From positions 2,851,436 to 2,915,435 of the forward strand of contig CAWJYM010000004.1 of assembly GCA_963847125.1 (NCBI GenBank): 64,000 nucleotides of DNA, given 5' to 3'. Below the pieces are notes generated by a model. The model was not told where the DNA came from. It worked only from the letters and a program-made list of their open reading frames with translations, and did no database searches. Below are positions 19,719 through 58,839 of the stretch, piece by piece. This stretch comes from an uncultured Acidobacteriota bacterium. Lineage in GTDB: Bacteria; Acidobacteriota; Vicinamibacteria; Vicinamibacterales; 2-12-FULL-66-21. Both the position numbers and the translations under genes were made by a program. Position 1 is the first letter of the stretch. Each line of letters starts with the position of its first letter.

Positions 19719-22700
19719 GGCCATCGGCCGGCTCATCGCGGCGGTGAGGCGTCGCTGGCTCGCGCTCGACGGTCTCGGCGCGCTCGGACGCGCCGCCGGC
19801 GCGACCGCCGTCGCTCTCGCGCTCGCCGTCGCCCTCGATCGATGGCTGCTCCTCGAGGGCTGGTGGCTGTTGGCCGTGGCAGCGGTCACGGCCTTCTGCG
19901 CCCTCGCCGCGATCGTGCTGTCGATCCGCGCGATGCGATGGCCGGACGAGCGAAAGCTGGCCCGGCTGGTGGAAGAGCGGTGTCCCGAGCTCGAGGATCG
20001 ACTCGCGACGGCCGTTGCAGTCCGCGATGCCGGCGGTCTCGCGCCGCTCGTTCTCGAGGATGCCGCCGCGCGCGCGCGCAACGTCGACCCGGCGAGCGTC
20101 GTGACGCCCGCGGCCGTCCGGCACGCCGCCTGGCGCGCGGGTGTGGCGGTCGTGCTCCTCGCGGCCGCGCTTGTCCTCGGCTGGTCTTCAATCGAGAGAG
20201 TCTGGCTGACCGCCTGGCTGCGGGTGTTCCCCGGCGCGCTTCAGGTCGTGGTCGAGCCGGGCGACGCGCGCGTCCGGGCGGGGCAGCCGCTGACGATTCG
20301 CGCGCGGCTGTCTGGCGCGCCGGCGGCGCTGGCGCGCCAGGCACCCATGCTCGTCATCGGACGCGGCGAGGGCGCACGGACGCTGCCCATGGTCTCCGCG
20401 CCGGCCGACGCTGGAAGGTCGCCCGGCCACGCCGCGGATGTCGGCGCGGTCGATCGGACCTTCACGTACTACGTGGCTGCGGCCGGCATCCGCTCGCGCG
20501 ATTACACGATCACCGCGGTCCGTCCGCCGCGGGTCACGCGCATCGACCTGCGGTATCAGTACCCGGCGTTCACCGGCCTCGCGCCGCGCACAGAAACGGA
20601 CGGCGGCGACGTCTATGCTCCCGCGGGCACCCGCGTGCAGCTGAACGTGCGCACCGACCGGCCGGTCGCCTCCGCGGCGCTGACGCTCGGCGAGAACCGC
20701 ACCGTCGATCTCAAGGCCTCGTCCTCCACGAGCGAGCTCGAAGGCGTCATCGTCGTCGATCGGGACGATGCGTACCGCGTGGCGCTGGCGGATGGGGAAG
20801 GGCTGTCGAATCCTGGCGAGACCGAGTATTTCATCCGCATGATGGACGACCGGCCGCCCGACGTGCGGATCCTGCGGCCCGGCGGCGACCGCCAGGCCAC
20901 GCCGCTCGAGGAGGTCCTGGTCGAGGCGCGCGCCGAAGACGACTACCGCATCGGCCGCTTCGATCTCGTGTTCGCGGTGCGCGGCGCCGGCGAGAAGGTC
21001 GTGCCGCTCGGCCGCGGCGGGGCCGCCGTCGAGACCGGACGCCACCTGATGTTCCTCGAGGACCTCGGCGTAAAGCCCGGAGACTTCGTCAGCTACTACG
21101 CGCGCGTGCGAGACGTCGGCCGCGGCGCGCAGGGGCGCGAAGCGCGCAGCGAGATGTTCTTCGTCGAGGTCACGCCGTTCGATCAGGAGTTCAGCCGCGC
21201 CCAGAGCCAGGCGGGCGCGGGCGGGGCAGGCGCCGGCGCGGGGCTCGAAGCCCTGATCGCGGCTCAGAAGGACATCATCAACGCCACCTGGAACCTGGAT
21301 CGCCGGGCGCGCGCGGGACGCTCCGAGCAGGACGTGCGCGCGGTCGGCAAGGCGCAGGCGGAGCTCCGCGGACGCACCGAGAGCATCGCCGCCCGGCTCC
21401 GGTTTGCGACGCGGATGAGCGCCGGGCGCCGGCGGCCGGGCACCACGGCCGCGCCCGAGCAGCCGGACGACCCGATCGGCAAGGCGATCGAGTCGATGAA
21501 GCTCGCGGAAGGCTCGCTCGACAAGCTGAGCACGAGCGAGGCGATGCCGCACGAGATGGCGGCGCTCCACGAGCTCCTGCGCGCCGAGGCCGAGATCCGG
21601 CGGCGGCAGGTCACGCAGCAGATGGCCGGTGGCGGCGGTGGGGGAGGATCCGGACGATCGGGACAGGACCTGTCGGCGCTCTTCGACCGTGAGCTTCAGC
21701 GCCAGCAGCAGACGAACTACGAGAATCGCGATACAGGCGAGCAGCAGCGCCGCGAGGATGAGCCCGAAAGCGACGCGCTCGCGAAAGTGCGGGAGCTGGC
21801 GCGCCGGCAGGACGAGCTGTCGCGCAAGCAGCGCGAGCTGGCGAACGCCAAACTGAACGAAGAGGAGCTGCGGCGACAGCTCGAAAAGCTCACTCGCGAG
21901 CAGACGGAGCTCCGCGAGCAAGCGGAGCGCCTCGATCAGGAGATGAGCCGTTCGCGGCAGGGCCAGAACCAGAACGAGAACCAGCATCAGTCCGGGCAGC
22001 AGGGCCGTTCGCTGCGCGATGCGTCTGATGAGATGCGCGGCGCGACGAGCGATCTTCGCCGGCAGGATCTCGCGGGCGCCAGCGCGCGCGGCGATCGCGC
22101 GGCCGAGCGGCTCAGGGAGCTGGAGCGTCGGATGCGGGGCCGGAATCCCGACCAGCGTCGGCGCGAGCTCGGCGAGCTTCAGGTCGAAGCGCAACAGCTC
22201 GCCGACCTCGAGCGCCGCGTCGCGGACGAGGCGTCACGCCTCGGGCGCGGCACTCCGGATTCCACGACTCGGACCCGCCTGGCGGACGAGCAGGATCGCC
22301 TCGCGGCGCGGGTCGAGTCGCTCGAGAAGCAGCTTCGCGAGATGTCGTCGACGGGACAAGGCGACGAGAAGCAGGCGGCGACGGATGCCGCACGCGAGCT
22401 GTCCCGCCGGAACGTGGGGCGGGGGATGAAGGAGTCGGCCGAGTCGCTGCGATCGGATGCCAAGGAAGGTCAGGCGCCCGACAAGCGCGGCGCAGAGCCC
22501 GGGCAGGCGGAACGGGAGCTGGCGCGCTCGCTCGACCGTGTAGCGGAACGGATGGGCGCGCAGGGAGACGCCGACGGGCGGCGGCTGGCTGACGAGATGG
22601 CCCGCGCGCGAGAAGCGCGCGATCGGTTGAACGACATGGCCCGGCGCCTCGAGCGGCTCGAGCAGGAAGATCGCGCCGCGCGCAGCGGCGAACAGTCATC

Positions 22701-23175
22701 CGGCCAGCAGCAGGGCCGGCAAGGACAACAGCAGGGCTCCGGTCAGCCAGGCGGACAGCAGCAGCAGCAACAGGGCGGTGGCGGCCGCGGCGGCGACCTC
22801 GCCCGGCTGCGCGACGAGTACCAGCGCGAGATCGAGCGCGCGCGCGAGGTGCTGCAGGGATTGCAGCGCTCGGCGCCCGACTCTGGAATGGGCGGCTCCA
22901 CGCCAGAGGAGCACGAGTACAGCATCTCCGCGCCAGGCCGCGAGGCCTTCAAGAACGACTTCAGCAACTGGGAGCGCCTGCGGAAGGACGTCTCGCTCGC
23001 GCTCGAGCGGCGTGAAACGGCCATCGCCGATAAGCTGGCCGGCAAGCGCCGGCAGGACCGGCTCGCGGCCGGCGCCGCCGACGGCGTGCCAGAGGCCTAC
23101 CGGGCGCTCGTCGCCAAGTACTTCGAGTCCCTTGCGCGGTCCGGGCGTGCGCCGGCCGCTCCGAAGCAGCCGTGA
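19669..23175 (+). CDS. Giant membrane-anchored protein, DUF4175-like, with long coiled-coil and low-complexity C-terminal half
   Basis: 1168-aa ORF with TM helices near the N-terminus and a beta-rich middle (YQYPAFTGLAPRTETDGGDVYAPAGTRV). After ~21600 it becomes E/R/Q-rich heptad-like sequence with a poly-G run and Q/G runs. The start is ambiguous (ATG 19669, or TTG 19711 overlapping the upstream stop). Confidence 0.7.
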   Translation: MRSSVKDCWREGTGLPEAIGRLIAAVRRRWLALDGLGALGRAAGATAVALALAVALDRWLLLEGWWLLAVAAVTAFCALAAIVLSIRAMRWPDERKLARLVEERCPELEDRLATAVAVRDAGGLAPLVLEDAAARARNVDPASVVTPAAVRHAAWRAGVAVVLLAAALVLGWSSIERVWLTAWLRVFPGALQVVVEPGDARVRAGQPLTIRARLSGAPAALARQAPMLVIGRGEGARTLPMVSAPADAGRSPGHAADVGAVDRTFTYYVAAAGIRSRDYTITAVRPPRVTRIDLRYQYPAFTGLAPRTETDGGDVYAPAGTRVQLNVRTDRPVASAALTLGENRTVDLKASSSTSELEGVIVVDRDDAYRVALADGEGLSNPGETEYFIRMMDDRPPDVRILRPGGDRQATPLEEVLVEARAEDDYRIGRFDLVFAVRGAGEKVVPLGRGGAAVETGRHLMFLEDLGVKPGDFVSYYARVRDVGRGAQGREARSEMFFVEVTPFDQEFSRAQSQAGAGGAGAGAGLEALIAAQKDIINATWNLDRRARAGRSEQDVRAVGKAQAELRGRTESIAARLRFATRMSAGRRRPGTTAAPEQPDDPIGKAIESMKLAEGSLDKLSTSEAMPHEMAALHELLRAEAEIRRRQVTQQMAGGGGGGGSGRSGQDLSALFDRELQRQQQTNYENRDTGEQQRREDEPESDALAKVRELARRQDELSRKQRELANAKLNEEELRRQLEKLTREQTELREQAERLDQEMSRSRQGQNQNENQHQSGQQGRSLRDASDEMRGATSDLRRQDLAGASARGDRAAERLRELERRMRGRNPDQRRRELGELQVEAQQLADLERRVADEASRLGRGTPDSTTRTRLADEQDRLAARVESLEKQLREMSSTGQGDEKQAATDAARELSRRNVGRGMKESAESLRSDAKEGQAPDKRGAEPGQAERELARSLDRVAERMGAQGDADGRRLADEMARAREARDRLNDMARRLERLEQEDRAARSGEQSSGQQQGRQGQQQGSGQPGGQQQQQQGGGGRGGDLARLRDEYQREIERAREVLQGLQRSAPDSGMGGSTPEEHEYSISAPGREAFKNDFSNWERLRKDVSLALERRETAIADKLAGKRRQDRLAAGAADGVPEAYRALVAKYFESLARSGRAPAAPKQP

Positions 23176-27037: not shown

Positions 27038-28375
27038 TCAGCGACCGGCGGTTTTTCCCACGCCTGGCGCGAACAGGTAGTCCGCAGCCAGGTGCGCGAG
27101 GGCCCGCACGCCGGTCACGAGGGCCCGCTCGTCGACAACGAACCGGGGCGAGTGGTTTGAGGCGGCCTTGCCGATCTGTTCTTTCGGCGTGACGCCGAGC
27201 GCGAGGAAGAGGCCGGGCGAGCGGCGCTGGTAATACGTGAAGTCCTCCGCGCCGGTGATGAGGGCCGATTCGGCCACGGCGCCCGGAGCGACGCGATCGA
27301 GCGTGGGCCGCATGCGCGCGGTGAGCTCCGGATGATTCGCGGTGACGGGATACTGCGGATCGATCCTGACGTCCGCCGTCGCGCCAGCGGAGGCGGCGAT
27401 CGACTCCGCCGTCCGCTTCACGCGCGCGTGAATGTCGGCCTGCGTCCGGTCGTCGAAGGCCCTGATGGTTCCGGTCAACCGTACGCTGTCGGGGATGATG
27501 TTGGATCGTACCCCGCCGTTGAACTGGCCCACCGTCACGATCGCCGGCAGCCTCGTGATGTCGACCTGCCGCGCGACGATCGTTTGCAGCGCCGTCACGA
27601 TTTGCGATCCGATGACGATGGGATCGATGCCGGCCCAGGGCGCCGCGCCATGTGTCTGGCGGCCACGCACGATGATCTCGAAGAGATCCGAGCTGGCGAG
27701 CATCGGCCCGGGGCGGGTCTGAATCTGGCTCGTCTCGATGTTGGCGAACACATGAAGGCCGAACACGGCGTCCACGCGCGGGTTCTCGAGGACGCCCTCC
27801 TTCACCATCAGTTCCGCGCCGGCCGGCCGCTCATCCCGGGGCGCTCCTTCCTCGGCCGGCTGAAAGATGAACTTCACCGATCCCGCCAGCTTGTCTTTGA
27901 CCGACGTGAGGACCTTCGCCGCCCCGAGAGCGATCGCCATGTGGGCATCGTGCCCGCACGCGTGCATCACGCCCACCGGCTGTCCCTCGTACTCGCCGAC
28001 CGCCTTGCTCGCGAACGGCAGATCGCTTTCCTCGCGCACGGGAAGGCCGTCCATGTCGGCGCGAAGCGCGACGACCGGTCCCGGCCTGCCGCCCTTCAAG
28101 AGGGCCACCACGCCGGTTTTCGCGACGTTGGTCTGGGGCTCGAGGCCGAAGCTGCGCAGCCGCGCCGCGATGTATTTCGCGGTCTCGACTTCGCGATTGG
28201 ACAGCTCGGGATGCGCGTGGAGATGCCGCCGCCAGGCGATCACTTCCGGCTCGATCGTCGCCGCCAGCCGATCGATCTCGCCCGCGAGCGCGGAAGCCGG
28301 AACGCCGCCGGGCGATCCCTGCGAGCCGGAACCGAGCGTGACGGCAGCGATGAGAGCGATTCGAAAGAGTCCCAT
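27038..28375 (-). CDS. Secreted M20-family amidohydrolase/carboxypeptidase
   Basis: 445 aa with a signal peptide, MHACGHD motif and an M20D-like layout. Confidence 0.88.
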   Translation of the reverse strand: MGLFRIALIAAVTLGSGSQGSPGGVPASALAGEIDRLAATIEPEVIAWRRHLHAHPELSNREVETAKYIAARLRSFGLEPQTNVAKTGVVALLKGGRPGPVVALRADMDGLPVREESDLPFASKAVGEYEGQPVGVMHACGHDAHMAIALGAAKVLTSVKDKLAGSVKFIFQPAEEGAPRDERPAGAELMVKEGVLENPRVDAVFGLHVFANIETSQIQTRPGPMLASSDLFEIIVRGRQTHGAAPWAGIDPIVIGSQIVTALQTIVARQVDITRLPAIVTVGQFNGGVRSNIIPDSVRLTGTIRAFDDRTQADIHARVKRTAESIAASAGATADVRIDPQYPVTANHPELTARMRPTLDRVAPGAVAESALITGAEDFTYYQRRSPGLFLALGVTPKEQIGKAASNHSPRFVVDERALVTGVRALAHLAADYLFAPGVGKTAGR

Positions 28376-28384
28376 GGGACGGGC

Positions 28385-28392
28385 AGTATACT
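28385..28392. promoter_or_regulatory. 8-bp palindrome AGTATACT giving a TATACT -10-like hexamer on both strands between divergent start codons
   Basis: The M20-phoD intergenic gap is only 23 bp. The hexamer ends 6 nt before the phoD ATG and 9 nt before the M20 ATG. Confidence 0.3.
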
Positions 28393-28398
28393 CGGGCC

Positions 28399-29994
28399 AT
28401 GCGCATTTCGCGGCGTCACTTTCTCGTCAGCACCGCGGCCGCAGGGGCCACGCCGCTTGTCCGCCTCGAGGCGCAAACCTCGACATCCCGCCGCGTGTTC
28501 CGCCACGGCGTGGCGAGCGGCGATCCGTTGACCGACGGCGTGATCCTGTGGACGCGCGTGACGGCGCCGGCGCAGGCATCGCCTGAGGTGTCGTGGGAGA
28601 TGTCCCGCACCGCGAGCTTCACGCGCGTCGTCGCGCGCGGGATGACGAGTACCGGCGCATGGCGCGATTTCACCGTGAAGATCGATGCGGGCGGCCTGGC
28701 GCCCGGGACGACGTACTATTACCGGTTCCGCACGCTCGGCGAGCAGTCGCCGGTCGGGCGTACGCGGACGCTGCCCGCCCCGGGCGTCCGGCGAATCCGG
28801 CTGGCGCTGGCCTCATGTTCGAATCTGCCATACGGCTACTTCAACGTGTACAGGCGCATCGCCGACCGGGCGGATCTGGATGCCGTCCTCCATCTCGGCG
28901 ACTACATTTACGAGTTTCCGAACGGCCGATACGGCGACGGCACGGCGCTCGGCCGCGTGCCGGCGCCGGACCGGGAGATCGTCGCGCTCGCCGACTACCG
29001 GGTGCGATACGCGCAGTACCGATCGGACCCGGACCTCCAGGAGGTCCACCGCCAGCATCCGTTCATCGTCGTGTGGGACGACCACGAGATCGCGAACAAC
29101 GCGTGGCGTGACGGCGCCGAGAACCACAATCCCGAGAAGGGTGAAGGGGAATACGCCCCGCGGCGCGCCGCGGCCGTCCAGTCCTATCTCGAATGGATGC
29201 CGATCCGCGAAGATCGATCGACGCGGCAGCCTCGCATCTATCGATCCTTCGCGTTCGGCGATCTGGCGGATCTGATCATGCTCGACACTCGGCTCGTGGA
29301 TCGCGACGAACAGGCGGCGACGCGCGAGGAGATCGCGGTCGTCGACGACCCCAGACGATCGCTGCTCGGTCGCGCGCAGGAAGAGTGGCTCTTCGCGGAG
29401 CTGGCGTCGTCCAGGCGCGCCAACGTGACGTGGCAGCTCCTCGGCCAGCAGGTCGTGTTCGCCCCGAACAGCCTGCCCGGTGCGACGTCAGGCAACATTG
29501 ATTCGTGGGACGGCTACCGACCCGGCCGCCAGCGCGTCATCGATGCCATCGTTGCCCAACGGCTTCAGAACGTCGTCGTGCTGACCGGGGACGTCCACAG
29601 CTCGTGGGGTTACGACGTGGCGCAGAACCCCTGGGACGACTACGATCCCGGGACCGGCCGTGGGGCGCTCGCGGTCGAAGTCGTCACGCCTGCGGTCTCG
29701 TCGCCGAGCGGCTTCGCGAACGAAGGGGGCGCGGAGCGGATGGAGGCCGCCCGAAAGGCGCGTCCGCACCTGCGGTACCTCGAGGGGCTTCACCGCGGGT
29801 ACGTCGTCCTGGACATCACGCGCGAGCGTGCGCAGGCCGACTGGTACTACGTGCCGACCGTCAACGCGCGCACACGTCTCGAGGAATTCGGACAAGGACT
29901 TCTCACTGAAGCCGGCAGGCCGCATCTCGTCGAGGCGTCGAGCCCGGCGCCCGCCCGTTCCGCAGCGGACGGACCGGCGCCTCCGGACGCTTGA
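28399..29994 (+). CDS. phoD: Alkaline phosphatase D (PhoD family), Tat-exported
   Basis: 531 aa. Twin-arginine MRISRRHFLVSTAAAGA, FRHGVASGDP, LHLGDYIYE, WDDHE motifs. Confidence 0.9.
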   Translation: MRISRRHFLVSTAAAGATPLVRLEAQTSTSRRVFRHGVASGDPLTDGVILWTRVTAPAQASPEVSWEMSRTASFTRVVARGMTSTGAWRDFTVKIDAGGLAPGTTYYYRFRTLGEQSPVGRTRTLPAPGVRRIRLALASCSNLPYGYFNVYRRIADRADLDAVLHLGDYIYEFPNGRYGDGTALGRVPAPDREIVALADYRVRYAQYRSDPDLQEVHRQHPFIVVWDDHEIANNAWRDGAENHNPEKGEGEYAPRRAAAVQSYLEWMPIREDRSTRQPRIYRSFAFGDLADLIMLDTRLVDRDEQAATREEIAVVDDPRRSLLGRAQEEWLFAELASSRRANVTWQLLGQQVVFAPNSLPGATSGNIDSWDGYRPGRQRVIDAIVAQRLQNVVVLTGDVHSSWGYDVAQNPWDDYDPGTGRGALAVEVVTPAVSSPSGFANEGGAERMEAARKARPHLRYLEGLHRGYVVLDITRERAQADWYYVPTVNARTRLEEFGQGLLTEAGRPHLVEASSPAPARSAADGPAPPDA

Positions 29995-34320: not shown

Positions 34321-35961
34321 CTATTTCGGGTTGATCTGGTAGATCCGCAGCGTCCCGCTCACTTCGTTCGAGACCATGAGGAGCGGCTCACCGCTTGGGC
34401 TCGAGTCGGCCGGGATGAACCGCGCCGCCTCGGGACCGAGGTCTCCGGCTGCCTCCGTTCCAGGCGCCGCCGAGAAGTTGCGTGTGTTGATGTATTGCAC
34501 GAGCCTCGGGGATCTCGGGTCGTCCAGCTCGAACACGACGATTCCTCCGACGCGCTCGAGCATGACGAAGAGGTAGAGACGACCGAAGACACGCGCCACG
34601 GTCACCCCTTCGGGCTCGGGCCCCTTGTCATCGCTTCGATCGTCGCGCGTGTTGTTGGCGTTGCTGGCGTTGAAGTTCGCCGGGAACGCCGCCGCCGTCA
34701 GCTGTTCGAGCATGTCGCCGCTGTCGAAGACGAGGCGCCCGCGCTCAGACCAAATCGAAAACGACCGCGCGCCGAAAGAGTACAGCTCGTCGTAGTCGCC
34801 GTCGTCGTCTACGTCCCCGTCGAAGCTCGTCACCTTCAGCCTGCCGATTCCAGCCGGACGGCTCCGAATCGTCGCCGCATCGGGAAACGCGACCGGATCG
34901 AGAACGATGTCCTCGATCTCGACGCTTTCTTCGCCGGCGTCATTCAGTCCGGAGTACTCCCGAACGTCGCCTTCATTGGCTGTGACGAGGTACGTATCGC
35001 CTTTGTGCTTGAACGAAGCGATTGCATCCGGCTGGTACATCCCACGGATGGGCCACTGTTTGATGGCGATCGCGCCATCGTCGCGGCCGCCGTCCAGGCC
35101 TCGGCCCACGCGTGAGTGGTTCTTGAACCCCAGGCCGACCAGCTTCGTGACCTCCTTCTTCTTCAGGTCGACGACCGCGAGTGCGTTGTTCTCCTGCAGC
35201 GTGACCCAGGCGGTCCCGGAGTCGCGTGACACGGCGATGTACTCGGGCTCGAGGTCCTGAGCCACGGTGGCGCCCGGACCATAGATCCGAATCGAGCTGT
35301 CGAGCGGACAATTGTTGAACGCGCCGAAGCCGGCGGTCGTCACATCGGAATCACGCAGCCGATGGACGCCCCTGCGGAGGTTGATGATGCTGACGCTGCC
35401 CTCCGGGTCGAACGTGTAGTCGTCGGTCGGCTGGCCCTCGTTGGCGGTCAGCACGAGCTTGCCGTTCGGCGTGAAGGTCAGCATGTCCGGCAAAGCGCCC
35501 ACGGTGACCTGGCTCAGCAGTCTGCCGTCTGCGTCGAAGAAGAGTACTTTTCCGGGCGCCGTATCGTCTTCACCCTGAGGCACGGCGACGGCAACGACTC
35601 CGTCATGCACAGCGACGCTCGTCGCGTGGGCGTCCGCGCCCCACGGTGTCAGATCGATGCTGAACGCGAACACCGGGCGCGCCGGATCGGTGAGATCGAC
35701 GACGTCCAGCTTCGGCTGCTCGGCAAACGTCATGAAGGCGCGATGGCTGTCGGGATCGTAGGCGCTGATCTCGACCGCACCTTCATCGAAGAATCCAGAC
35801 TGGTAGACGCCGAGGGAAGTCAGCTCGATCGACTTCTGCCCGCCTCGATCGCGGTCGTCGCCCATCCCGAGCACCGCCAGCACCGCCACGCTTGCCGCCA
35901 CACCTCGAACCGTTCTGCGCATGTGTGTCCTCCGGCCGGCCCAACCGGGCAGGCGCCGCAA
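34321..35961 (-). CDS. Secreted beta-propeller-like protein (choice-of-anchor I / phytase-like esterase family)
   Basis: 546 aa with a signal peptide and a SFDGDVDDDGDYDELYSFGARSFSIW motif. The start may be the second Met (35922). Confidence 0.5.
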   Translation of the reverse strand: MRRLPGWAGRRTHMRRTVRGVAASVAVLAVLGMGDDRDRGGQKSIELTSLGVYQSGFFDEGAVEISAYDPDSHRAFMTFAEQPKLDVVDLTDPARPVFAFSIDLTPWGADAHATSVAVHDGVVAVAVPQGEDDTAPGKVLFFDADGRLLSQVTVGALPDMLTFTPNGKLVLTANEGQPTDDYTFDPEGSVSIINLRRGVHRLRDSDVTTAGFGAFNNCPLDSSIRIYGPGATVAQDLEPEYIAVSRDSGTAWVTLQENNALAVVDLKKKEVTKLVGLGFKNHSRVGRGLDGGRDDGAIAIKQWPIRGMYQPDAIASFKHKGDTYLVTANEGDVREYSGLNDAGEESVEIEDIVLDPVAFPDAATIRSRPAGIGRLKVTSFDGDVDDDGDYDELYSFGARSFSIWSERGRLVFDSGDMLEQLTAAAFPANFNASNANNTRDDRSDDKGPEPEGVTVARVFGRLYLFVMLERVGGIVVFELDDPRSPRLVQYINTRNFSAAPGTEAAGDLGPEAARFIPADSSPSGEPLLMVSNEVSGTLRIYQINPK

Positions 35962-36081
35962 CGTGTACCAGTGGCCTGCGACAGGCGTGCAACGACTCGG
36001 TCACGAACCTGCGACGGCCGAGCCTTGGGGTGGCATGGTTGACAGTTCTGTCGGGTCGCTAGGGCGTATAATCGAAAGACG

Positions 36082-46925: not shown

Positions 46926-47603
46926 CTACGGTCTGTCGTCGATGGCCTGATGCCGGACGTCTTTCGCGGACACCATGAAGATGACATCTTCGGCGATGTT
47001 CGTGGCGTGGTCGCCGATGCGCTCGAGGTGCCGGGAGACGAGGATCAGATCGAGGCCGGGCTCGATCGTCGCGTGGTCCTGCAGCATGTAGGTGAGCAGC
47101 TCGCGGAAGACCTGTGTTTTGAGTCCGTCCAGCCGATCGTCGCGGTCGAGCACGGCCTGTGCCAGCGCCGGGTCGCGGCGCACGAACGCGTCCAGGGCGT
47201 CGCGGAGCATCGTCTGGGCGATCGTCGCCATCTGCGGGATGTCGATGAGCGGCTTCACCGGCGCATGCTTCAGATAGCGCCGGGCCGCCTCGGCGATGTT
47301 CACGGCCAGGTCGCCGATCCGCTCGAGGTCGGTGTTGATCTTGATGGCCGAGACGATCATCCGCAGGTCGGTCGCGACCGGCTGGTGGAGCGCGACCAGC
47401 GTGAAGCCGCGCTGATCGATCTCGATGTGCAGGCGGTTCAGCGGGTCGTCACCCGCCAGGACGTCCTCGACGAGGTCGGCGTCCCGCTCGACGAGCGCCT
47501 GCACCGAGAGCCGGACGCGCTCCTCGGCGAGGCCGCCCATCTCGAGCAGCCGCGCCTTGAGGGCGTCGAGCTCTTCGTGGAAGTGTGGGGTTGCTCGTTC
47601 CAT
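46926..47603 (-). CDS. phoU: Phosphate signalling complex protein PhoU
   Basis: 225 aa. Two PhoU repeats with ERIGD motifs. Confidence 0.95.
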   Translation of the reverse strand: MERATPHFHEELDALKARLLEMGGLAEERVRLSVQALVERDADLVEDVLAGDDPLNRLHIEIDQRGFTLVALHQPVATDLRMIVSAIKINTDLERIGDLAVNIAEAARRYLKHAPVKPLIDIPQMATIAQTMLRDALDAFVRRDPALAQAVLDRDDRLDGLKTQVFRELLTYMLQDHATIEPGLDLILVSRHLERIGDHATNIAEDVIFMVSAKDVRHQAIDDRP

Positions 47604-47606
47604 AGG

Positions 47607-48368
47607 TTAACCAAACCGCCCGGTCACGTAGTCCTCGGTCAGTTTTTCGGCCGGCGCGGTGAAGATCTTTCGCGTTTCGTCGTACTCGACCATCCGTCCC
47701 AACCAGAAGAATGCGGTGAAGTCCGACACGCGCGCCGCCTGCTGCATGTTGTGGGTGACGATGACGATGGTGTACTTGTCCTTGAGCTGGTAGATCAGCT
47801 CTTCGATGCGCTGCGTGGCGATCGGGTCGAGCGCCGAGGCAGGCTCGTCCATCAGCACGATGTCCGGCTTGATCGCGAGGGCGCGCGCGATGCAGAGCCG
47901 CTGCTGCTGCCCCCCCGAGAGCGACAGCGCGGGCTCGTGCAGCCGGTCTTTGACCTCGTCCCAGAGCGCCGCGGCCTTCAGACTCTCCTCCACGCGATGC
48001 GACAGATCGGTGCGCCCGTTCGCGATGCGGTTGATTTTGAGCCCGTACGCGACGTTTTCGAAGATCGATTTCGGGAACGGGTTGGACTTCTGGAACACCA
48101 TCCCCACCCGGCGGCGCAGCGCGACCACGTCGACCGATGGGGCGTAGATGTCCTGGCCGTCTATTTTGATCGATCCCTCGAGCCGCGTGTCCGGGATGAG
48201 GTCGTTCATCCGGTTCAGCGTCCGGAGAAACGTGCTCTTGCCGCAGCCCGACGGGCCGATGAAGGCGGTCACGACGTGCGGTCGGATCGCGACCCGGATG
48301 TCGTGGAGCGCGCGCTTCGTGCCGTAGTAGAAGTTGACGCCGTCCGCGGCGATCTTCACCTCGGTCAT
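47607..48368 (-). CDS. pstB: Phosphate ABC transporter ATP-binding protein
   Basis: 253 aa. [23 protein letters not shown]. Confidence 0.97.
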
Positions 48369-49210
48369 GCGTTCCGCCGTCTCTGAAACCGATCGCGGAT
48401 GAGGATGGCCGCGCCGTTCATCAGGACCAGCATCACCAGGAGCACGAGAATGCCGGCCGCCGCGTTTTCAGCGAAGCCCGCCTGTGGTCGGGACACCCAG
48501 TTGAAGATCTGAATCGGAAGGACCGTAAAGGGCGACCAGGGAGACTCAGGAACGAAACGGATGTAGGCGACGGCGCCGACGATGATGAGCGGCGCCGTCT
48601 CGCCGATCGCGCGGGAGAGCGCCAGAATGATTCCCGTCAGAATGCCCGGGAGCGCCGCGGGCAGGACCTGGTGCTGCGTCGTCTGCCACTGGGTCGCGCC
48701 GAGCGCGTACGAACCCTCACGCAGCGACTTCGGCACCGCGCGCAGCGCTTCGCGTGTCGCGAGGATCACGACCGGCAGGACGAGCAGGGCGAGCGTGGCC
48801 GCGCCCGCGACCACGCTCCGCCCGAGGGCCAGCGCGCGGACGAACAGCCCCAGCCCGAGCAGGCCGTAGACGATCGACGGCACGCCCGCCAGGTTCGCGA
48901 TGTTGATCTCGATGATCCGGCCGAATCGCCCTCGCGCTCCGTACTCTTCGAGGTAGACCGCCGCCGCAACGCCGACCGGGACCGCCATGAGCGCCGTCAG
49001 CACAATCACGTAGAACGTACCGATAATCGCGGGCAGAATCCCGGCCGCTGCCGCAAAGCGCGACGGATAGCTGGTGAGGAACTCCCAGGACAGACGGGGG
49101 GCGCCGTCAAGGATCACATCGAGAAGCAGGGCCGCGAGCGCCGCCAGAGCCGCCAGCAGGCCCAGCAGGCCCAGCACGGCGAACGCACGATCGGCGAGAT
49201 AGCGGTTCAC
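48365..49210 (-). CDS. pstA: Phosphate ABC transporter permease PstA
   Basis: Start re-called to GTG 49210 ([14 protein letters not shown]...), which forms a GTGA overlap with the pstC stop. The upstream part of the 494-aa ORF is Arg-rich shadow. Confidence 0.92.
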
Positions 49211-50088
49211 ACGTATTCCTCGCGGAAGCGCTCCCGCAGCCAGTTGCTGAAGAGGTTCAACGCGAACGTCGAGAGGAAGAGCAACATCCCGACGGCGAAG
49301 ATCGTGCGGTACTCGAGCGTGCCGGCCGGTGTGTCCCCCATGCTGACCTGCACAATATAGGCGGTCATCGTCTCGATCGGTACCAGCGGGTTCGCCGTCA
49401 GCCGCGGCTGCTGGCCGGCCGCGATGGCGACAATCATCGTTTCGCCGATCGCGCGGGAGACCGCGAGGATCGCGGCCGCCGAAATCCCGGAAAACGCCGC
49501 CGGAACCACGACCAGGAGCGACGTCTGAAGCCTCGTCGCCCCGAGCGCGAACGCCCCCTCGCGAAGCCCGTTCGGCACGGACCCAAGGGCATCCTCGCTG
49601 AGCGACGAGACGAGGGGCAGGATCATGATGCCCATCACGATGCCGGGGCCCAGCGCGTTGAAGCCGGCGAGGCCCGGGATGAAGCGCTGCAGGAGCGGCG
49701 TGACGAAGAGCAACGCGAAGTAGCCGTACACGACGGTCGGCACACCGGCAAGGATCTCGAGGATCGGCTTGACCGCGCGCCGGACGCCCGGCCTGGCGTA
49801 CTCGGCCAGATAAATCGCCACGAGCAGCCCGCCCGGGAGCGCCACGCACATTGCAATAGTCGACACGACGATCGTGCCGGTGACCAGGGGCAAGACGCCG
49901 AAATGCTGGTCGGCGAACAGCGGCGTCCAGACGGTTCCGAACAGGAATTCCATGATCGGGATCTCGCGCAGGAAGGCGAGCGTCTCGGTCAGGAGGACCG
50001 CGATGATCCCGGCGGTGACAATGATCGACAGTGCGGCTGACAGGAACAGCGCGCGCTCGATGACGCGCTCGAGAAGCGACCGGGTCAT
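49207..50088 (-). CDS. pstC: Phosphate ABC transporter permease PstC
   Basis: 293 aa, typical PstC sequence. Confidence 0.93.
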
Positions 50089-50096
50089 ACCGGTCC

Positions 50097-51116
50097 CTAC
50101 GGCTGCGCCGGCTGAGCGAGCAGCGATTCGAGGGACTGACCCGGCTTCGCGCCCGCGTACATCGTGCCCTTCGTCCCGGCCTTGTACCGGTCGCGTACGA
50201 GCTGTTCCTCTCGATCGTTGAGCGGCACGTACCCGACCTCTTTCGCCAGCCCGTGCCCCTTTTCCATGAAGAAATCGACGAAGGCCTTGACCTCGGGACG
50301 AGCGAACGCCTTCGTGCTCACGTAGATGAACAACGGCCGGGACAGCGGACGGTAAGTTCCGCCGCGAACGGACTCCTGCGACGGCACGATGGGACCGTCG
50401 CCGTTGTCCGGCTTTCCATCGTCGACAGGCACGACCTTCAGCCGATCTTTATTCTGCTCGTAGTAGGCCAGGCCGAAGTACCCGAGCGCCAGCTCGTCGC
50501 CGGCGATTCCCTGCACCAGCACGTTGTCATCCTCGCTCGACGTGTAGTCTCCACGGCTTTGTTTCGCCTTGCCGACGATGACTTCGGTGAAGTAGTCGAA
50601 CGTGCCCGAGTCCACGCCTGCGCCGAAGAGGTGAATCTCCCGGTCGGGCCAGCCGTCGCGGACGTGGCTCCAGTGCGTGACCTTGCTCGCCGCCGCCGGC
50701 TCCCAGAGCTTCTTCAGCTCGGCGACCGTCATCGACTGGACCCAGGTGTTCTTCGGATTGACCACGACCACCAGACCGTCGTATGCGACCGGCAGCTCGA
50801 TGAACTCCACTCCGCTTTTGGCGCACGCGTCAATCTCGGTGGCGCTCACGGGCCGAGAGGCGTCCGAGATGTCCGTCTCACCGCTGCAGAATTTCTGGAA
50901 CCCGCCACCCGTTCCCGAGCTGCCCACGGTGACCCGCGCGTCGCTGTTGGCCTTCTGAAACTCCTCGGCGACCGCCTCTGTGATCGGGAAGACCGTGCTC
51001 GATCCGTCGACCTTGACGACTGCCGGCGCCGCCGTCGGCTCAGACCCGCCGCCTCCGCAGGCGGCGAAGGCAAGGATGACGGGCACACACAGAGCGAGAC
51101 GCAGGATGCGTGTCAT
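50097..51116 (-). CDS. pstS: Phosphate-binding lipoprotein PstS
   Basis: 339 aa. Lipobox LAFAAC, GSSTVFP, SGTGGGF motifs. Confidence 0.93.
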
Positions 51117-51137: not shown

Positions 51138-51176
51138 AGATTACGCACTCATTTCACATCTGTTAAATCCGTGTAA
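51138..51176 (-). promoter_or_regulatory. Candidate pstS promoter with Pho-box-like direct repeats
   Basis: Minus strand reads TTACAC ggat TTAACA gatg TGAAAT gagtgcg TAATCT. That gives hexamer repeats at a 10-bp period and a TTAACA-17nt-TAATCT arrangement ending ~21 nt before the ATG. Confidence 0.5.
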
Positions 51177-51191
51177 CCGGATCGGGCGGTC

Positions 51192-51938
51192 CTATATGGG
51201 CCGGGAATCGCTCTCGGCGAGGAACTCCCCGATCTGACGCCGCAGCTCTTCCTGAATCGCCTCCACCTTGCGCTTGGCGTCGAGGAGCCGGAACCCGAAC
51301 TCATCAGCCATCGAGTTGTACTCGCGCAGCAGCGAGCGCTGGTACGCGCGGAAGCTGTCGTGGATGTCGTCGGCCAGCTTCAGATCCATTCCGGATTCCC
51401 AGAAATTCATCCCTCGGGATTCCAGCACGCGGCGGATCAGCGTGCGCTCGTCGATCTTCAGATAGAAGACGAGGTGCGGAGCGATCGCGAAGCCGTACAG
51501 ATTCCGCGTCCAGGTGCGATCGATTCCCCGGACCTGGGCGCGTGCGAGCGCGGTGAAAATATAGCGGTCGGCGAGCACGATGAAGCCGGCCTTGAGTGCG
51601 GGGATGACTTCCTTTTCGAGCCGGTCGGCGAAGTCGGTGGCGTACAGCAGCGCGAAGGTCAGCTTGTTGAGGGTGTTGCTGGACTTGGCCAGCTCGATGG
51701 TCGGCTGCATGAGCGTCGAACGGGTCCAGCCGGTCTCGATGACCCCGTAGCCCTGGACTTCGAGCCACTCCCGCAGCAGGCGAATCTGAGTCGAGCGCCC
51801 GACCCCGTCGGTCCCTTCGATCGCGATGATCTTCCCGGGATAGCCGTCGATGGGCAGGTACGGGATGCCGTACCCGTAGTAGTGGCCGGGTCGGACCCCC
51901 GCATTCGCGCCGTTTTCATGAGGAGTCAAGTCGGTCAT
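51192..51938 (-). CDS. Divergent thymidylate-kinase-fold protein B (P-loop Lys replaced by Arg)
   Basis: 248 aa from ATG 51938. IAIEGTDGVGRSTQ, LADRYIFTALA, C-terminal FWESGMDL...FRAYQRSLLREY extension. Confidence 0.7.
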   Translation of the reverse strand: MTDLTPHENGANAGVRPGHYYGYGIPYLPIDGYPGKIIAIEGTDGVGRSTQIRLLREWLEVQGYGVIETGWTRSTLMQPTIELAKSSNTLNKLTFALLYATDFADRLEKEVIPALKAGFIVLADRYIFTALARAQVRGIDRTWTRNLYGFAIAPHLVFYLKIDERTLIRRVLESRGMNFWESGMDLKLADDIHDSFRAYQRSLLREYNSMADEFGFRLLDAKRKVEAIQEELRRQIGEFLAESDSRPI

Positions 51939-52651
51939 CGGGCCTCCGTCGTCTCCATCGGCTCCGCTTCGGCCTGTTCCTCCGGCGCGCCGGCGAGGTG
52001 CCGCGTGACGAGCTTGCGGAACGCGCGCTGCTGTTCGGTGATGCTGCTCCTCGCGTCGATGACGTCGAGGCCGAACTCCTCGACGAGCCGGTCGTACTCC
52101 TCGAGCACGCGCCCCTGGAAGATCCGAAAGCTCTCGATGGGGCTCGTGCTCCAGCCCATGTCCATTCCAGCCTCGTAGAACTTCAGCTTCACGCGGCGCG
52201 CCATGAGCCGATCCACGGACACTTCGATCGGCACCCTGAAATAGACTGCCAGATCCGGCCGGACCGCAAAACTGTACAGCTCGCGCACCCATCGGTTGTC
52301 GACCCCGCGCGTCGCGTCGCGCGCGAACGCCGTGTAGGCGTACCGATCGGCGAGCACGATCATGCCGGCCTTGAGCGGCGGGATGATGTTGTAGAGCAGA
52401 CGGTCGGCGAAGTCCGTGGCGTGCAGCAGGCTGAACGTCATCGGCGTCAACGCGTTCTTTTTCTTACCGGCCTTGGTTGCGGCCTTCACGAGCGCGGACG
52501 AGTTCCATTCCGTGACGAACACGCGGTGACCGGCGGCGCTCAGCCACTTCGCGAGCAGGCCGAGCTGCGTTGTTTTTCCCGACCCGTCGATGCCCTCGAC
52601 GACGAACAGCTTTCCGGGATACGCGTGTGGTGCGAGGAGAGTGTTTAGCAT
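51935..52651 (-). CDS. Divergent thymidylate-kinase-fold protein A (canonical P-loop)
   Basis: 238 aa from ATG 52651. VVEGIDGSGKTTQ, LADRYAYTAFA, FYEAGMDM...FRIFQGRVLEEY. ATGA overlap with protein B. Confidence 0.75.
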   Translation of the reverse strand: MLNTLLAPHAYPGKLFVVEGIDGSGKTTQLGLLAKWLSAAGHRVFVTEWNSSALVKAATKAGKKKNALTPMTFSLLHATDFADRLLYNIIPPLKAGMIVLADRYAYTAFARDATRGVDNRWVRELYSFAVRPDLAVYFRVPIEVSVDRLMARRVKLKFYEAGMDMGWSTSPIESFRIFQGRVLEEYDRLVEEFGLDVIDARSSITEQQRAFRKLVTRHLAGAPEEQAEAEPMETTEAR

Positions 52652-54200
52652 GGCGGACGCGTTCCTTGCCCTTCTGAGACGTGACGTCGAACTTGATTGG
52701 CTTGCCGAGCGCATCGGCGAGCGGTTGCGTGTGTCGCTCGGCCGCCCACAATTCGAGCTCCGCGTCGCCGCTGGCGCGCAGGCGGATGACGAGGCCGTCC
52801 TTTTTTTCGCGCAAGTGGAGGGAGCTGATCGTCTGGGAATGGCTGCGGTCCAGCCCCTCCGCGAGCCGGACGATCCCTGCGAGCAGCTTCACGGTGCGCC
52901 GGAGCCCGCTCGAGAGGGCGCCGTAGCCCTCGTGCGACTTCTTGGGCTCGCCACGCCGGTGGTACCGCGCGACGAGGCCGATGACCTCGATTTCCTCCGG
53001 TTCGAAGCCTCGAAGATCGCCGTTCTTGATCAGATAGAAGGAATGCCGGTGGTGGCGCTCGTAGCTGATGTGCTCGCCGATATCGTGCAGCAGCGCGGCG
53101 TACTCGAGCCATTCCCGCTCGCGGTCGGTCAGGCGGTGCAGATGCCGTGTCTGATCGAACACCGACAGCGCCAGCCGCGCGACCTGCTTGGGGTGATCGG
53201 ACCAATAGTTACAGCGCTCTCCCAGTTCGACCACGCTGCGGCGCCGGACGTCGGGGTAGCGCTCGACCTTCTTGATGTGCGCCGCGTTCTTTCGGATGTA
53301 GTTGAGGACCAGCCCCTCTCGGAGCGCGAGGTCGCAGAGCGTCAACTCCTCCGCGCCCAGCCGCCGCAGGATCGTGTCGACCAGCACGACGCCCGCGACC
53401 GAAAGGTCCGCCCGGCGCGGGTCGAGACCCGGAAGCCGCAGCCGGCGGTCCAGGTCCATGCTCGTCAATCGCTCGCGAAGCCGATGGATGGCCTTTGCGC
53501 TCACGCGCAGATTGCGGACGTCGGCCGATGGCTTGGCATCGGCCGCCAATGCGCCGAGGCTGAGGATCGTGCCGCTCGTGCCGATGACGCGGTCGAAGCC
53601 GCGCGAGGCGATCTCGTCGAGATAGTCGCCCGCCTCGCGATTGATGTGCTTGATCAGTTTCCGCCCGTCGCGATTCGACAGCGGATCGCTTTTGACGAAC
53701 CGCTCCGTGAGCCGGATGACGCCCATCTTGAAGCTGCGCGCGAGCTGCGGCCGTCCCGCGCCCCCAAGCGTCACCTCGACGCTGCCGCCGCCGATGTCGA
53801 TCACCACTCCGGAGTTGTTCTTGAGATCGACGCCATACGCCGCCGCCTGATGGATAAGGCGCGCCTCCTCGGTTCCGGAAATGACCCGGACGTGGATGCC
53901 CGTCTGACGCGCGACCGTCGCGATGAACTCGCCGCCGTTTTCCGCCTCGCGCACGGCGCTCGTGGCCGACGCGACGATCTCGTCGACTTTGTGCGACTCG
54001 GCCAGCCGGCGATACTTCGCAAGGACCTGGAGCGCCGCCGACATCGCGGTGTCAGTCAGGTGCCCGCTGTCGAGGCCGCCGGCGCCGAGCCGGACCATGT
54101 CCTTTTCGCGGTCGATGACCTCGAACGAGAGGTCAGGGTGGACCTGCACGACGATCATGTGGACCGAGTTGGTGCCGATGTCTATGGCAGCGATGCGCAT
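52464..54200 (-). CDS. ppx: Exopolyphosphatase / guanosine pentaphosphate phosphohydrolase (Ppx/GppA) with HD domain
   Basis: 578 aa. IDIGTNSVHM, DIGGGSVE, LHDIGEHISY. The last ~62 codons are Arg-rich and overlap the next gene by 188 nt. Confidence 0.9.
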   Translation of the reverse strand: MRIAAIDIGTNSVHMIVVQVHPDLSFEVIDREKDMVRLGAGGLDSGHLTDTAMSAALQVLAKYRRLAESHKVDEIVASATSAVREAENGGEFIATVARQTGIHVRVISGTEEARLIHQAAAYGVDLKNNSGVVIDIGGGSVEVTLGGAGRPQLARSFKMGVIRLTERFVKSDPLSNRDGRKLIKHINREAGDYLDEIASRGFDRVIGTSGTILSLGALAADAKPSADVRNLRVSAKAIHRLRERLTSMDLDRRLRLPGLDPRRADLSVAGVVLVDTILRRLGAEELTLCDLALREGLVLNYIRKNAAHIKKVERYPDVRRRSVVELGERCNYWSDHPKQVARLALSVFDQTRHLHRLTDREREWLEYAALLHDIGEHISYERHHRHSFYLIKNGDLRGFEPEEIEVIGLVARYHRRGEPKKSHEGYGALSSGLRRTVKLLAGIVRLAEGLDRSHSQTISSLHLREKKDGLVIRLRASGDAELELWAAERHTQPLADALGKPIKFDVTSQKGKERVRHAKHSPRTTRVSRKAVRRRGHRRVGKNNAARPAREVAERRRSPRVRHGMELVRAREGRNQGR

Positions 54201-54276: not shown

Positions 54277-54295
54277 GTGTAACAGGCGTGTAACA
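54277..54295 (-). promoter_or_regulatory. Direct repeat GTGTAACA-N3-GTGTAACA (minus strand TGTTACAC x2, 11-bp period) in the ppx/CHAD divergent region
   Basis: Read directly. It resembles the TTACAC repeats upstream of pstS. Confidence 0.4.
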
Positions 54296-54330: not shown

Positions 54331-55272
54331 ATGAAGGCGGCCAGCCCATCGGTCACGCTGCTGCAACGGCGGGCGCGCGCCCTGATTGACGCGCTCCCTG
54401 GTGCAATCGCCGGAGATGCGGCGGCGCTACATCGCGCGCGCGTCGCCTCCAGGCGGCTCCGCGAGGCGCTTCCCGTCGCCGGTGCCGGCGCCTCCGGCGG
54501 TGCGCAGCGCAAAGTGCGGAAGCTTGCCCGCCGCCTCACGCGTGCGTTGGGCACCGTTCGCGAGTTGGACGTCACGCTGCAAATCCTCGAGGAACGGGCC
54601 GAGGCCGACGACGGGCACGGGTCGGCGATCGATCGGGCGCGCGGCATGGTGCGGGTCGAGCGCGAACGGCGTCGCGCCGACATGCTCAAACGGCTGTCTC
54701 GCATCAATCCCGACAAGCTGCAGCGACGGCTCGCCTCGTTCACCGCGGAGGTCGCGGCCGCCGAGAGCGATCCGTGGCGGCGCGCGCTGGCGGCGCGGCT
54801 CGCGCACCGCGCGCGCCGGTTGCACCAGGCGATCGGGCGCGCCGGAGCGATCTACGTTCCGTTTCGTCTCCACGCGGTACGCATCTCCGCCAAGCAACTG
54901 CGCTACACGCTCGAGCTCGCCGTGGAGGCCGGGTTGTCGGACGTCAGACCGCACGTGAGTACCGTGAAACGGGCGCAGACGACCCTGGGCCGCCTGCAGG
55001 ATCTGCAGGTGGTGCTGAGGCAGGTGGATGCTGCGTCTGCGGAGCCCGGACTCGAGCCGGCGGCGCGAGCGGGCCTCGCGCGCCTCGCTCAGACGATCGA
55101 AGAGGACTCACGTCGCGCGCACGGACGCTATCTACGTTGGGCGTCCCGGCTTTCGGCGGTCTGCGCGACGACGCGGCGCCAGATTGTGCCGTCGCTGGCC
55201 GCCGCAGGACGCCAGCGCGCGCTCCTGATGAAGGGACCGAAGCGGCCCGCGTTCCAGAAGAGGCACGCCTGA
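54331..55272 (+). CDS. CHAD domain protein (polyphosphate-granule associated family)
   Basis: 313 aa, helical, with repeated H..R...RRLR-type motifs (LHRARVASRRLREAL, HAVRISAKQLRYTLE). Confidence 0.8.
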   Translation: MKAASPSVTLLQRRARALIDALPGAIAGDAAALHRARVASRRLREALPVAGAGASGGAQRKVRKLARRLTRALGTVRELDVTLQILEERAEADDGHGSAIDRARGMVRVERERRRADMLKRLSRINPDKLQRRLASFTAEVAAAESDPWRRALAARLAHRARRLHQAIGRAGAIYVPFRLHAVRISAKQLRYTLELAVEAGLSDVRPHVSTVKRAQTTLGRLQDLQVVLRQVDAASAEPGLEPAARAGLARLAQTIEEDSRRAHGRYLRWASRLSAVCATTRRQIVPSLAAAGRQRALLMKGPKRPAFQKRHA

Positions 55273-55775
55273 TGGCGGACGTCGAGCTCTACCTGATTCG
55301 TCACGGACTGGCCGCCGAGCGCGGTGACGCCTTTCCCGACGACGCCAAGCGGCCGCTCACGAGCAGGGGCATCGCCCGCCTGCGCAAGGAAGCGCGGGCG
55401 CTCGCGAAGCTCGGCGTGTCGTTCGATCAAATCGTGACCAGCCCGCTCGTCCGCGCACGCCAGACCGCGGATGTCTTCGCCCAAACGCTCAACCCCCATC
55501 CGCCGCTTGCGATCTCCGATGCGCTGGCGCCGGGCGGGACGTCGGTCGCCGTCATCGAAGACCTGGGTCGGTTCGAGCGCCGCGCGCGTGTCGCGCTCGT
55601 CGGCCACGAACCGAACATGGGGGAGCTGGCGGCGCGACTCCTCGGGACGCGCCGCGCGATCGAATTCAAGAAGGGCGCGATCTGCCGCATCGACGTCGCC
55701 GCGCTTCCGCCGACGCGTCCGGGGCAGCTCCGGTGGTTCGCGACACCAAAACTGTTGCGACTGATCACGAAGTAG
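55272..55775 (+). CDS. sixA: Phosphohistidine phosphatase SixA
   Basis: 167 aa. LYLIRHG catalytic motif, TSPLVRARQTA, LVGHEPNM. The start shares 1 nt with the CHAD stop (TGATG). Confidence 0.85.
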   Translation: MADVELYLIRHGLAAERGDAFPDDAKRPLTSRGIARLRKEARALAKLGVSFDQIVTSPLVRARQTADVFAQTLNPHPPLAISDALAPGGTSVAVIEDLGRFERRARVALVGHEPNMGELAARLLGTRRAIEFKKGAICRIDVAALPPTRPGQLRWFATPKLLRLITK

Positions 55776-57823: not shown

Positions 57824-57840
57824 TTTACACAGTATTTACA
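57824..57840 (+). promoter_or_regulatory. Direct repeat TTTACA-N5-TTTACA (11-bp period), Pho-box-like
   Basis: gtgTTTACAcagtaTTTACAgcag, in an AT-richer stretch ~45 nt upstream of ATG 57885. Confidence 0.4.

Positions 57841-58131: not shown

Positions 58132-58839
<708 letters not shown>

Follow-up and report, generated by a model that had tools for sequence, protein, structure and literature searches.

Tandem kinase-like genes between ppx and pstSCAB-phoU of an uncultured acidobacterium as the predicted catalytic and regulatory subunits of a bacterial family-3 polyphosphate kinase

A heteromeric family-3 polyphosphate kinase, PPK3, has been described from the archaeon Sulfolobus acidocaldarius, where it is encoded by the operon SixA-PPX-Saci_2019-Saci_2020-CHAD (Hofmann et al., JBC 2026, PMC12995831; preprint 10.1101/2024.08.28.610084). 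Saci_2019 (cPPK3) is the catalytic subunit; Saci_2020 (rPPK3) is inactive alone and raises the activity, and the complex of the two is α2β2 (PMC12995831). The reaction is reversible, favours the formation of ATP from polyphosphate (polyP) and ADP, and ADP is the preferred nucleotide, whereas thymidylate (dTMP) is phosphorylated by neither of the two proteins but by a third paralogue, Saci_0893 (PMC12995831). The inactivity of rPPK3 was ascribed to the lost arginine of the DRX motif, a positively charged polyP cleft was found to be kept in cPPK3 and missing in rPPK3, and ST1543 was recognised as a homologue of cPPK3 (PMC12995831). PPK3 sits in a largely bacterial clade of the dTMP kinase (dTMPK) superfamily and was considered mainly archaeal and present in 'a few' bacteria, in which operons were predicted beside PPX, SixA, CHAD, PstC and PstS (PMC12995831). 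Acidobacteriota were named among the bacterial homologues in the preprint (10.1101/2024.08.28.610084). Here we describe two adjacent genes, called A and B, in a stretch of 64,000 nt from contig CAWJYM010000004.1 of an uncultured Acidobacteriota bacterium; the whole of this stretch is called the window.

The PPK3 system is already published from archaeal Sulfolobus, and the pair in the window is most likely a bacterial PPK3. It is very likely that A and B are its catalytic and regulatory subunits and that they are co-expressed with the exopolyphosphatase PPX. Both genes are on the minus strand:

51935..52651, minus strand: gene A, predicted cPPK3 (catalytic subunit), 238 aa; in the clade of first genes, 50.5% identity to Saci_2019
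51192..51938, minus strand: gene B, predicted rPPK3 (regulatory subunit), 248 aa; in the clade of second genes, with loss of the Lys-rich patch

The stop codon of A and the start codon of B share the letters ATGA (cgATGAcc), and this overlap indicates coupled translation. The two proteins share 42% identity along 211 aa (E 5e-62) and both match the Pfam family PF02223, Thymidylate_kin (E 2e-23 for A and 1.5e-23 for B), which bears out the first-pass annotation of the pair as tandem, coupled paralogues of the thymidylate kinase (Tmk) fold. The start site of A fits close homologues of 238 aa and that of B homologues of 249-259 aa, at 98-100% query coverage. Protein A carries GIDGSGKTT (Walker A, with K26), VTEWNSS, LADRYAYT (R103), the Lys-rich segment G62-KKK-N66 and a basic LID region, and its R111, R115 and R148 are conserved. 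The motifs of B are GTDGVGRST (Walker A with R48 in place of the lysine), IETGWTRS and LADRYIFT (R125 kept), and it is without the Lys-rich patch. The Tmk-type P-loop and DRY-like motif that had been read in both proteins are thereby recovered (GSGKTT and LADRYAYT in A, GVGRST and LADRYIFT in B). A C-terminal extension had also been proposed as a shared trait of the pair; the shared segment, F[YW]E[AS]GMD, is real, but in the alignment it is an insertion of about 11 residues behind the LID region, not a C-terminal tail, and it occurs throughout the PPK3 family.

The placement within PPK3 was studied against the operons of S. acidocaldarius (L081), M. sedula and Nitrososphaera and three distant bacterial loci, and a tandem pair, with the c gene ahead of the r gene, is present in all six. 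Gene A has its best match in the first gene of every operon compared, and is 25% identical to Saci_2020. Gene B is 32% identical to Saci_2020, finds its best matches among the bacterial second genes (full-length identity 46-47%) and is 50% identical over 131 aa to the partial second gene of Nitrososphaera. In a neighbour-joining tree with 200 bootstraps, in which the pairs were labelled by operon position alone, all first genes, with A and Saci_2019 among them, formed a clade in 180/200 replicates, and all second genes, with B, Saci_2020 and the M. sedula protein, did so in 119/200. The second genes of Sulfolobales fell among the first genes in 0/200, and all PPK3 sequences stood apart, in 198/200, from two canonical Tmk outgroups, namely E. 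coli Tmk (sequence entered by hand) and a partial T. thermophilus sequence.

Structure comparisons lead to the same relatives. Among solved structures, both proteins are nearest to ST1543/STK_15430 (PDB 2plr, 5h70), at E 3e-56 (A) and 1e-43 (B), compared with only about 1e-14 for the canonical Tmks in the PDB. The AlphaFold2 model of B has a mean pLDDT (predicted local distance difference test) of 84, and the best Foldseek match to this model in the PDB was again ST1543 (TM score 0.91 normalised to the target, root-mean-square deviation 2.0 Å), followed by canonical Tmks. For the N-terminal extension of B, which contains a YYGYGI motif, confidence in the model is low (pLDDT below 50 for residues 1-22).

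The features which tell the two subunits apart agree with these placements. The c-type proteins (A, Saci_2019, ST1543, the M. sedula and Nitrososphaera first genes and those of the distant bacteria) have GSGK[ST][ST], TEWNSS, [AG]KK[KR], DRY and a basic LID, and the TEWNSS motif and KKK patch that A has in common with the archaeal cPPK3s occur in neither B nor the other r-type proteins. Five c-specific basic columns (K35, K56, K64, K65 and K157 in the numbering of A) hold K or R in 63-89% of the c-type and in 2-8% of the r-type sequences, and the mean net charge is +3.4 for the A-type and -1.7 for the B-type proteins. To judge from the alignment, basic columns found only in the c-type appear to fit what has been published on the polyP cleft of cPPK3 versus rPPK3.

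The pair also has a constant neighbourhood, which is listed here for the window:

52464..54200, minus strand: ppx, for an exopolyphosphatase with the Ppx-GppA domain and domain III (E 2e-61 and 6e-28 in Pfam), leading the ppx-A-B unit
54331..55272, plus strand: CHAD-domain gene (polyP-granule-associated family; Pfam PF05235, E 1.3e-29), divergent from ppx
55272..55775, plus strand: sixA, phosphohistidine phosphatase (TIGR00249, 92.7 bits against a cut-off of 74.5)
50097-51116, minus strand: pstS, above the NCBIfam cut-off
49207-50088, minus strand: pstC, above the NCBIfam cut-off
about 48365-49250, minus strand: pstA, above the NCBIfam cut-off
47607-48368, minus strand: pstB, above the NCBIfam cut-off
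46926-47603, minus strand: phoU, above the NCBIfam cut-off

The sixA gene overlaps the stop codon of the CHAD gene by 1 nt, and the pstSCAB-phoU block (46926..51116) follows directly downstream of B after a gap of 75 nt. The position first given for the pair, between pstSCAB-phoU and ppx, is accordingly confirmed by the NCBIfam matches of the pst and phoU genes and the Pfam matches of ppx and CHAD. A relative of the pair is encoded in at least 502 species-representative genomes, and the related loci discussed below are the best 80 of these (L001-L080). Their labels are nearly all Vicinamibacterales, Vicinamibacteria or Acidobacteriota, and gene A is 99% identical to a contig of an uncultured Acidobacteriota metagenome-assembled genome, CAVRXL010000012.1 (L001). 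The order with SixA and CHAD on one side, divergent from PPX, A and B on the other, is kept in 80/80 related loci wherever the contig reaches far enough, and B is usually followed by pstB-phoU or pstSCAB-phoU. The co-occurrence with ppx, CHAD and pst that had been put forward as a check on the pair is thus found, with both pairing and neighbourhood kept in every locus where they could be read. The overlap at the A/B junction is 4-35 nt in most of the 80 loci, and conservation across Vicinamibacterales is 77-87% identity for A and 73-85% for B. PPK3 is a fixed, highly conserved part of the Vicinamibacterales phosphate locus.

In wider searches, at least 8000 candidates each were found for A and B at E <= 1e-10 (clusters at 90% identity), and after clustering at 50% there were 304 clusters matching B at E <= 1e-30. 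By these matches, 'a few bacteria' understates the spread of PPK3 in bacteria. One of the 80 loci, L049 (CAZOAZ010000080.1), carries the label 'uncultured Bifidobacterium sp.', yet the SixA/CHAD/PPX/A/B/pstB/phoU locus is complete and of the Vicinamibacterales type, and its gene A shares 78% identity with that of the window; a binning or labelling error in this contig of a metagenome-assembled genome is probable.

The arginine in the P-loop of B deserves attention of its own, as the first-pass annotation had pointed to a Lys-to-Arg change in one of the paralogues. It is GVGR48ST in B, and the GxGR arginine is present in 72/72 Vicinamibacterales copies of B with a readable motif, which means that it is not a chance feature. 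Arginine stands in place of the Walker-A lysine (GxGR[ST]T) in 47 of the 48 r-type sequences in the comparison. The change is by this comparison a family-wide mark of the second subunit outside Sulfolobales, not a local oddity. The DRY motif is found in every Vicinamibacterales B copy with a readable motif and is kept in 46/48 of the r-type sequences, those of Nitrososphaera and the distant bacteria included; DGY replaces it in the Sulfolobales rPPK3s only. Among the Sulfolobales, the rPPK3 of M. sedula (L084:4624-5256) has a GSGRT P-loop and DGY, and Saci_2020 of S. acidocaldarius (L081:5621-6253) has an SSGKT P-loop, with lysine, and DGY. As M. sedula has the arginine P-loop like the bacterial r-subunits, it is Saci_2020 that is atypical at this position.

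Taken together with the archaeal enzyme, the following mechanism can be proposed. Protein A would bind ATP or ADP at its intact Walker-A loop (GSGK26TT), with R103 of the DRY motif and the arginines of the LID. Its TEWNSS motif and Lys-rich surface (K56, K63-K65 and K157) lie at the site used for dTMP in Tmk and may be suited to hold the end of a polyP chain, and A would move the terminal phosphate reversibly: polyP(n) + ADP <-> polyP(n-1) + ATP. Protein B, with the Walker-A arginine, no Lys-rich patch and a net acidic charge, is predicted to be non-catalytic and would dimerise with A and activate it in an α2β2 complex. By analogy with S. acidocaldarius we infer that the same chemistry and α2β2 assembly apply in this bacterium and that B is inactive. 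The earlier suggestion of a heteromeric pair of one active and one degenerate subunit corresponds well to the archaeal α2β2 enzyme of catalytic Saci_2019 and inactive, activating Saci_2020. The proposal of a polyP phosphotransfer role rather than dTMP kinase is likewise upheld by the cPPK3 clade of A, the rPPK3 clade of B, the shared SixA/CHAD/PPX neighbourhood and the archaeal pair without dTMPK activity.

Some observations weigh against assigning A and B to PPK3 in this way. The clade that joins the second genes with the Sulfolobales rPPK3s has 60% bootstrap in a simple neighbour-joining tree, and a larger tree puts the long branches of the Sulfolobales rPPK3s outside both clades. On a tree of 84 sequences, strict clade tests had low support (28/100 and 18/100), which is explained by fragmentary or chimeric representatives. 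Kinase activity in this bacterium is predicted from about 50% identity to an archaeal enzyme. Moreover, B is without the published mark of rPPK3 inactivity, the loss of the DRX arginine, as it keeps DRY, R133, R137 and R170 of the LID; it may therefore retain nucleotide binding or some activity. The assignment of B to the r-type is based on phylogeny, gene order and the loss of the basic patch, and not on replacement of the DRX arginine.

These residues form the basis of the alternative that survives best, a PPK3 in which B, unlike rPPK3 of S. acidocaldarius, binds nucleotide or polyP and works as an allosteric sensor or as a slower second catalytic site. The strict conservation of GxGR[ST]T and DRY in the bacterial and Nitrososphaera r-types speaks for it, as does the conservation of R125, R133, R137 and R170 in at least 92% of the r-type sequences and of the r-specific R73 in 92%, and across Vicinamibacterales the conservation of B is close to that of A. 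On the other hand, a change of the Walker-A lysine to arginine, as seen in B, generally abolishes phosphotransfer in P-loop enzymes, and B does not have the lysine patch of the c-type. In natural fusion proteins (see below) the P-loops of the r-domains are degenerate in several ways, suggesting that catalysis is dispensable there, and Saci_2020 is inactive (PMC12995831). A binding or catalytic B of this kind is therefore unlikely, and B as a non-catalytic, activating subunit of PPK3 is preferred.

It is very improbable that A and B are ordinary dTMP kinases, either as duplicated housekeeping enzymes or as a heterodimeric dTMPK, even though much of the available annotation says so. Both proteins have the dTMPK-like fold and match PF02223, and in the equivalog model for dTMP kinase, TIGR00041, A with 83.3 bits just reaches the cut-off of 83.25, B having 82.9; homologues of both are named 'dTMP kinase' by JGI and NCBI. 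However, the canonical dTMP loop, TREPGG, is found in neither A nor B in the alignment and is replaced by VTEWNSS in A and IETGWTRS in B, so that the first-pass statement of a missing loop holds also when the sequences are aligned, and B has arginine for the Walker-A lysine. The 80 loci, and archaea as well, keep the pair linked to ppx, CHAD and sixA, and in S. acidocaldarius dTMPK activity is absent from Saci_2019 and Saci_2020 and belongs to the separate Saci_0893 (PMC12995831). No other Tmk-like open reading frame (ORF) was found within the window.

Least credible of all is a pair of nucleotide kinases that has nothing to do with polyP, acting for example on guanosine polyphosphates beside a GppA-type phosphatase or on other nucleoside mono- or diphosphates: the substrate pocket is unlike that of dTMPK and the neighbouring Ppx/GppA protein stays under the cut-offs of the specific exopolyphosphatase models and matches the GppA model too, but its best match is TIGR03706, exopolyphosphatase, the context of CHAD (a polyP-granule protein), pst and phoU points to phosphate and polyP, and for the archaeal counterpart polyP was a direct substrate and ADP the preferred nucleotide (PMC12995831).

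Two further assignments of the pair were rejected. The possible link to PPK2 that had been raised at first holds at the general level of P-loop kinases and not as closer kinship: the fold is dTMPK-like, neither A nor B matches the PPK2 profile PF03976 at E <= 0.01, and the 50 best PDB structures in the Foldseek comparison with the model of B are all thymidylate-kinase entries, with no PPK2 structure among them. A kinase of a defence system was dismissed as well, as PADLOC gave weak generic matches only (PDC-M51B with E 5e-8 and 2e-9, VakA with 4e-5 and 3e-4), and no defence genes were found in the neighbourhood of A and B.

The PPK3 pair had been described as lying downstream of ppx with no gap, and the adjacency stands, although the genes do not merely abut. 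The ppx frame has no stop before the ATG of A and runs 188 nt into A in another frame, to 52464, and the overrun encodes an Arg-rich tail of about 62 aa, with 23 K/R among the last 63 residues. In about 75 of the 80 related loci the overrun is 104-263 nt, and its length varies between lineages. The ppx frame has 3.9 stops per kb inside A, so that, given the lack of a stop ahead of the ATG, chance alone predicts open stretches of 113-263 nt, and this low stop density explains the overrun. We saw no evidence in the window or the related loci for selection on the PPX tail or for a frameshift fusing PPX to A, and with a run of chance length and a variable tail the idea that the overlap serves a purpose, be it a programmed frameshift or a Ppx-cPPK3 fusion, was rejected as unsupported.

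Fusions of the PPK3 subunits nevertheless exist elsewhere. P0244 (460 aa) has a c and a degenerate r domain in one chain, and P0256, P0285, P0303 and P0386 (621-696 aa) combine a c domain and a second Tmk-like domain, whose P-loop is degenerate, with a Ppx-GppA domain III/HD at the C-terminus; the r-domain P-loop has degenerated in several different ways among these fusions. Natural c-r and c-r-Ppx_III fusions support a physical cooperation of c, r and PPX. A c-type PPK3-like domain (EGLDGSGKST ... ADRW/DRY) was also seen inside the much longer proteins P0323, P0331, P0344, P0359, P0363, P0368 and P0372 (915-2575 aa). Other apparent fusions were set aside. The PPX-A 'fusions' P0025, P0071, P0079 and P0108 resemble gene calls distorted by frameshift errors in long-read assemblies, and the apparent A-B chimeras P0001, P0010, P0020 and P0391 contain internal deletions or stretches rich in Arg/Pro that are out of frame, and were taken for artefacts of the assembly or of the ORFs. 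Most likely P0001, P0010, P0020, P0079 and P0391 are indel errors in metagenome assemblies and not real fusions.

With respect to regulation, the window was scanned for a repeat of the form TGTWAM-N5-TGTWAM, a direct repeat whose period of 11 bp is characteristic of Pho boxes, and three sites were found, all in intergenic DNA of promoter type, versus 0 expected by chance:

51161..51177, no strand assigned: Pho-box-like repeat TGTTAAATCCGTGTAAC, in the 75-nt gap between B and pstS
54278..54295, no strand assigned: Pho-box-like repeat TGTAACAGGCGTGTAAC, in the divergent intergenic region of ppx and CHAD
57824-57840, no strand assigned: Pho-box-like repeat, upstream of glgC
58132-58839: gene of a PhoB-like response regulator, best NCBIfam match PhoB, below the cut-off

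The pst-phoU operon with a Pho-box-like operator directly after B ties the enzyme to phosphate supply. In 76 related loci, 37 of the 71 exact copies of the motif are found no more than 300 nt past B, shortly before pstB or pstS, and 11 of the 71 lie upstream of glgC, suggesting that glycogen synthesis (glgC) shares the regulator. An exact copy upstream of ppx is found in 4/76 related loci only, and Pho control of the ppx-A-B unit itself is weakly supported for this reason. A scan of 46.5-56 kb gave no sigma-70-like promoter anywhere in that range and no terminator-like site between B and pstS.

Some other genes of the window were noted in passing. Genes for proteins with PhoD-like phosphatase and 'choice-of-anchor I' domains are located at 28354-29994 (plus strand) and 34321-36000 (minus strand), about 16-23 kb off, so further phosphate-scavenging genes may sit in the region. 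At 19663-23175 (plus strand) there is an ORF of 1170 aa with coding-like codon bias (G+C at third codon positions 0.87) and no Pfam match at E <= 1e-5; the region around it, 18-26 kb, is richer in G+C (about 0.73).

Vicinamibacterales are among the most abundant soil bacterial orders. PPK3 proteins are routinely annotated as dTMP kinase, and the correction changes the reading of polyP and phosphate cycling in soil metagenomes. Bacterial PPK3s would also be mesophilic enzymes on offer for ATP-regeneration work, and the conserved Lys-to-Arg P-loop gives a specific, testable handle on the function of the regulatory subunit. As a bolder and rather doubtful suggestion, PPK3, and not PPK1 or PPK2, might be the main polyP kinase of Vicinamibacterales, wired to the Pho regulon, with the site of B, complete apart from its strictly conserved P-loop arginine, sensing nucleotide or polyP instead of being a dead scaffold. 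In case the site of B has such a role, the published reason for rPPK3 inactivity, the loss of the DRX arginine, would hold for Sulfolobales only. Among the 10 ORFs of the window that were scanned, a set leaving out three ORFs of 321-346 aa, there was no match to PPK1 or PPK2.

Compared with known systems, A and B share with canonical Tmk the fold, Walker A, the DRY/DRX motif and the LID arginines. They differ from it in the replaced TREPGG loop, in the roughly 11 residues inserted behind the LID and in overall sequence, with an identity of about 23-28% to an E. coli reference sequence entered by hand. With PPK2 (PF03976) the likeness is that of P-loop kinases which phosphorylate nucleotides with polyP. 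Class II two-domain PPK2s pair an inactive with an active domain, analogous to r and c, whereas PPK2 differs from PPK3 by an N-terminal helix, a distal helix bundle and swapped ADP and polyP sites (PMC12995831). ST1543 of Sulfurisphaera tokodaii (PDB 2plr, 4nzy, 4rzx, 5h70) was deposited as a thymidylate kinase, yet is of the cPPK3 type, which makes it a good model for A and merely a paralogue of B, to which it is 37-38% identical.

The nearest known system is the PPK3 of S. acidocaldarius. There, as in the window, two tandem paralogues of dTMPK fold directly follow ppx and the cluster includes SixA and CHAD; A and Saci_2019 both have TEWNSS, the AKKK patch, DRY and a basic LID, and the second subunit is degenerate and without the basic patch. 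In contrast, B keeps the DRX arginine and has the Walker-A arginine where Saci_2020 has DGY and the Walker-A lysine, and its N-terminal extension of about 30 residues with YYGxGI occurs also in Nitrososphaera and other bacterial r-types but not in Sulfolobales. CHAD and sixA are divergent in the window and co-directional in Sulfolobus, pstSCAB-phoU directly follows B in the window, and the host of the predicted enzyme is a mesophilic soil acidobacterium. The A/B locus holds no new kind of system; to the known PPK3 it adds the scale of its presence in Vicinamibacterales, a corrected signature of the r-subunit, the Pho-box link and the fusion architectures.

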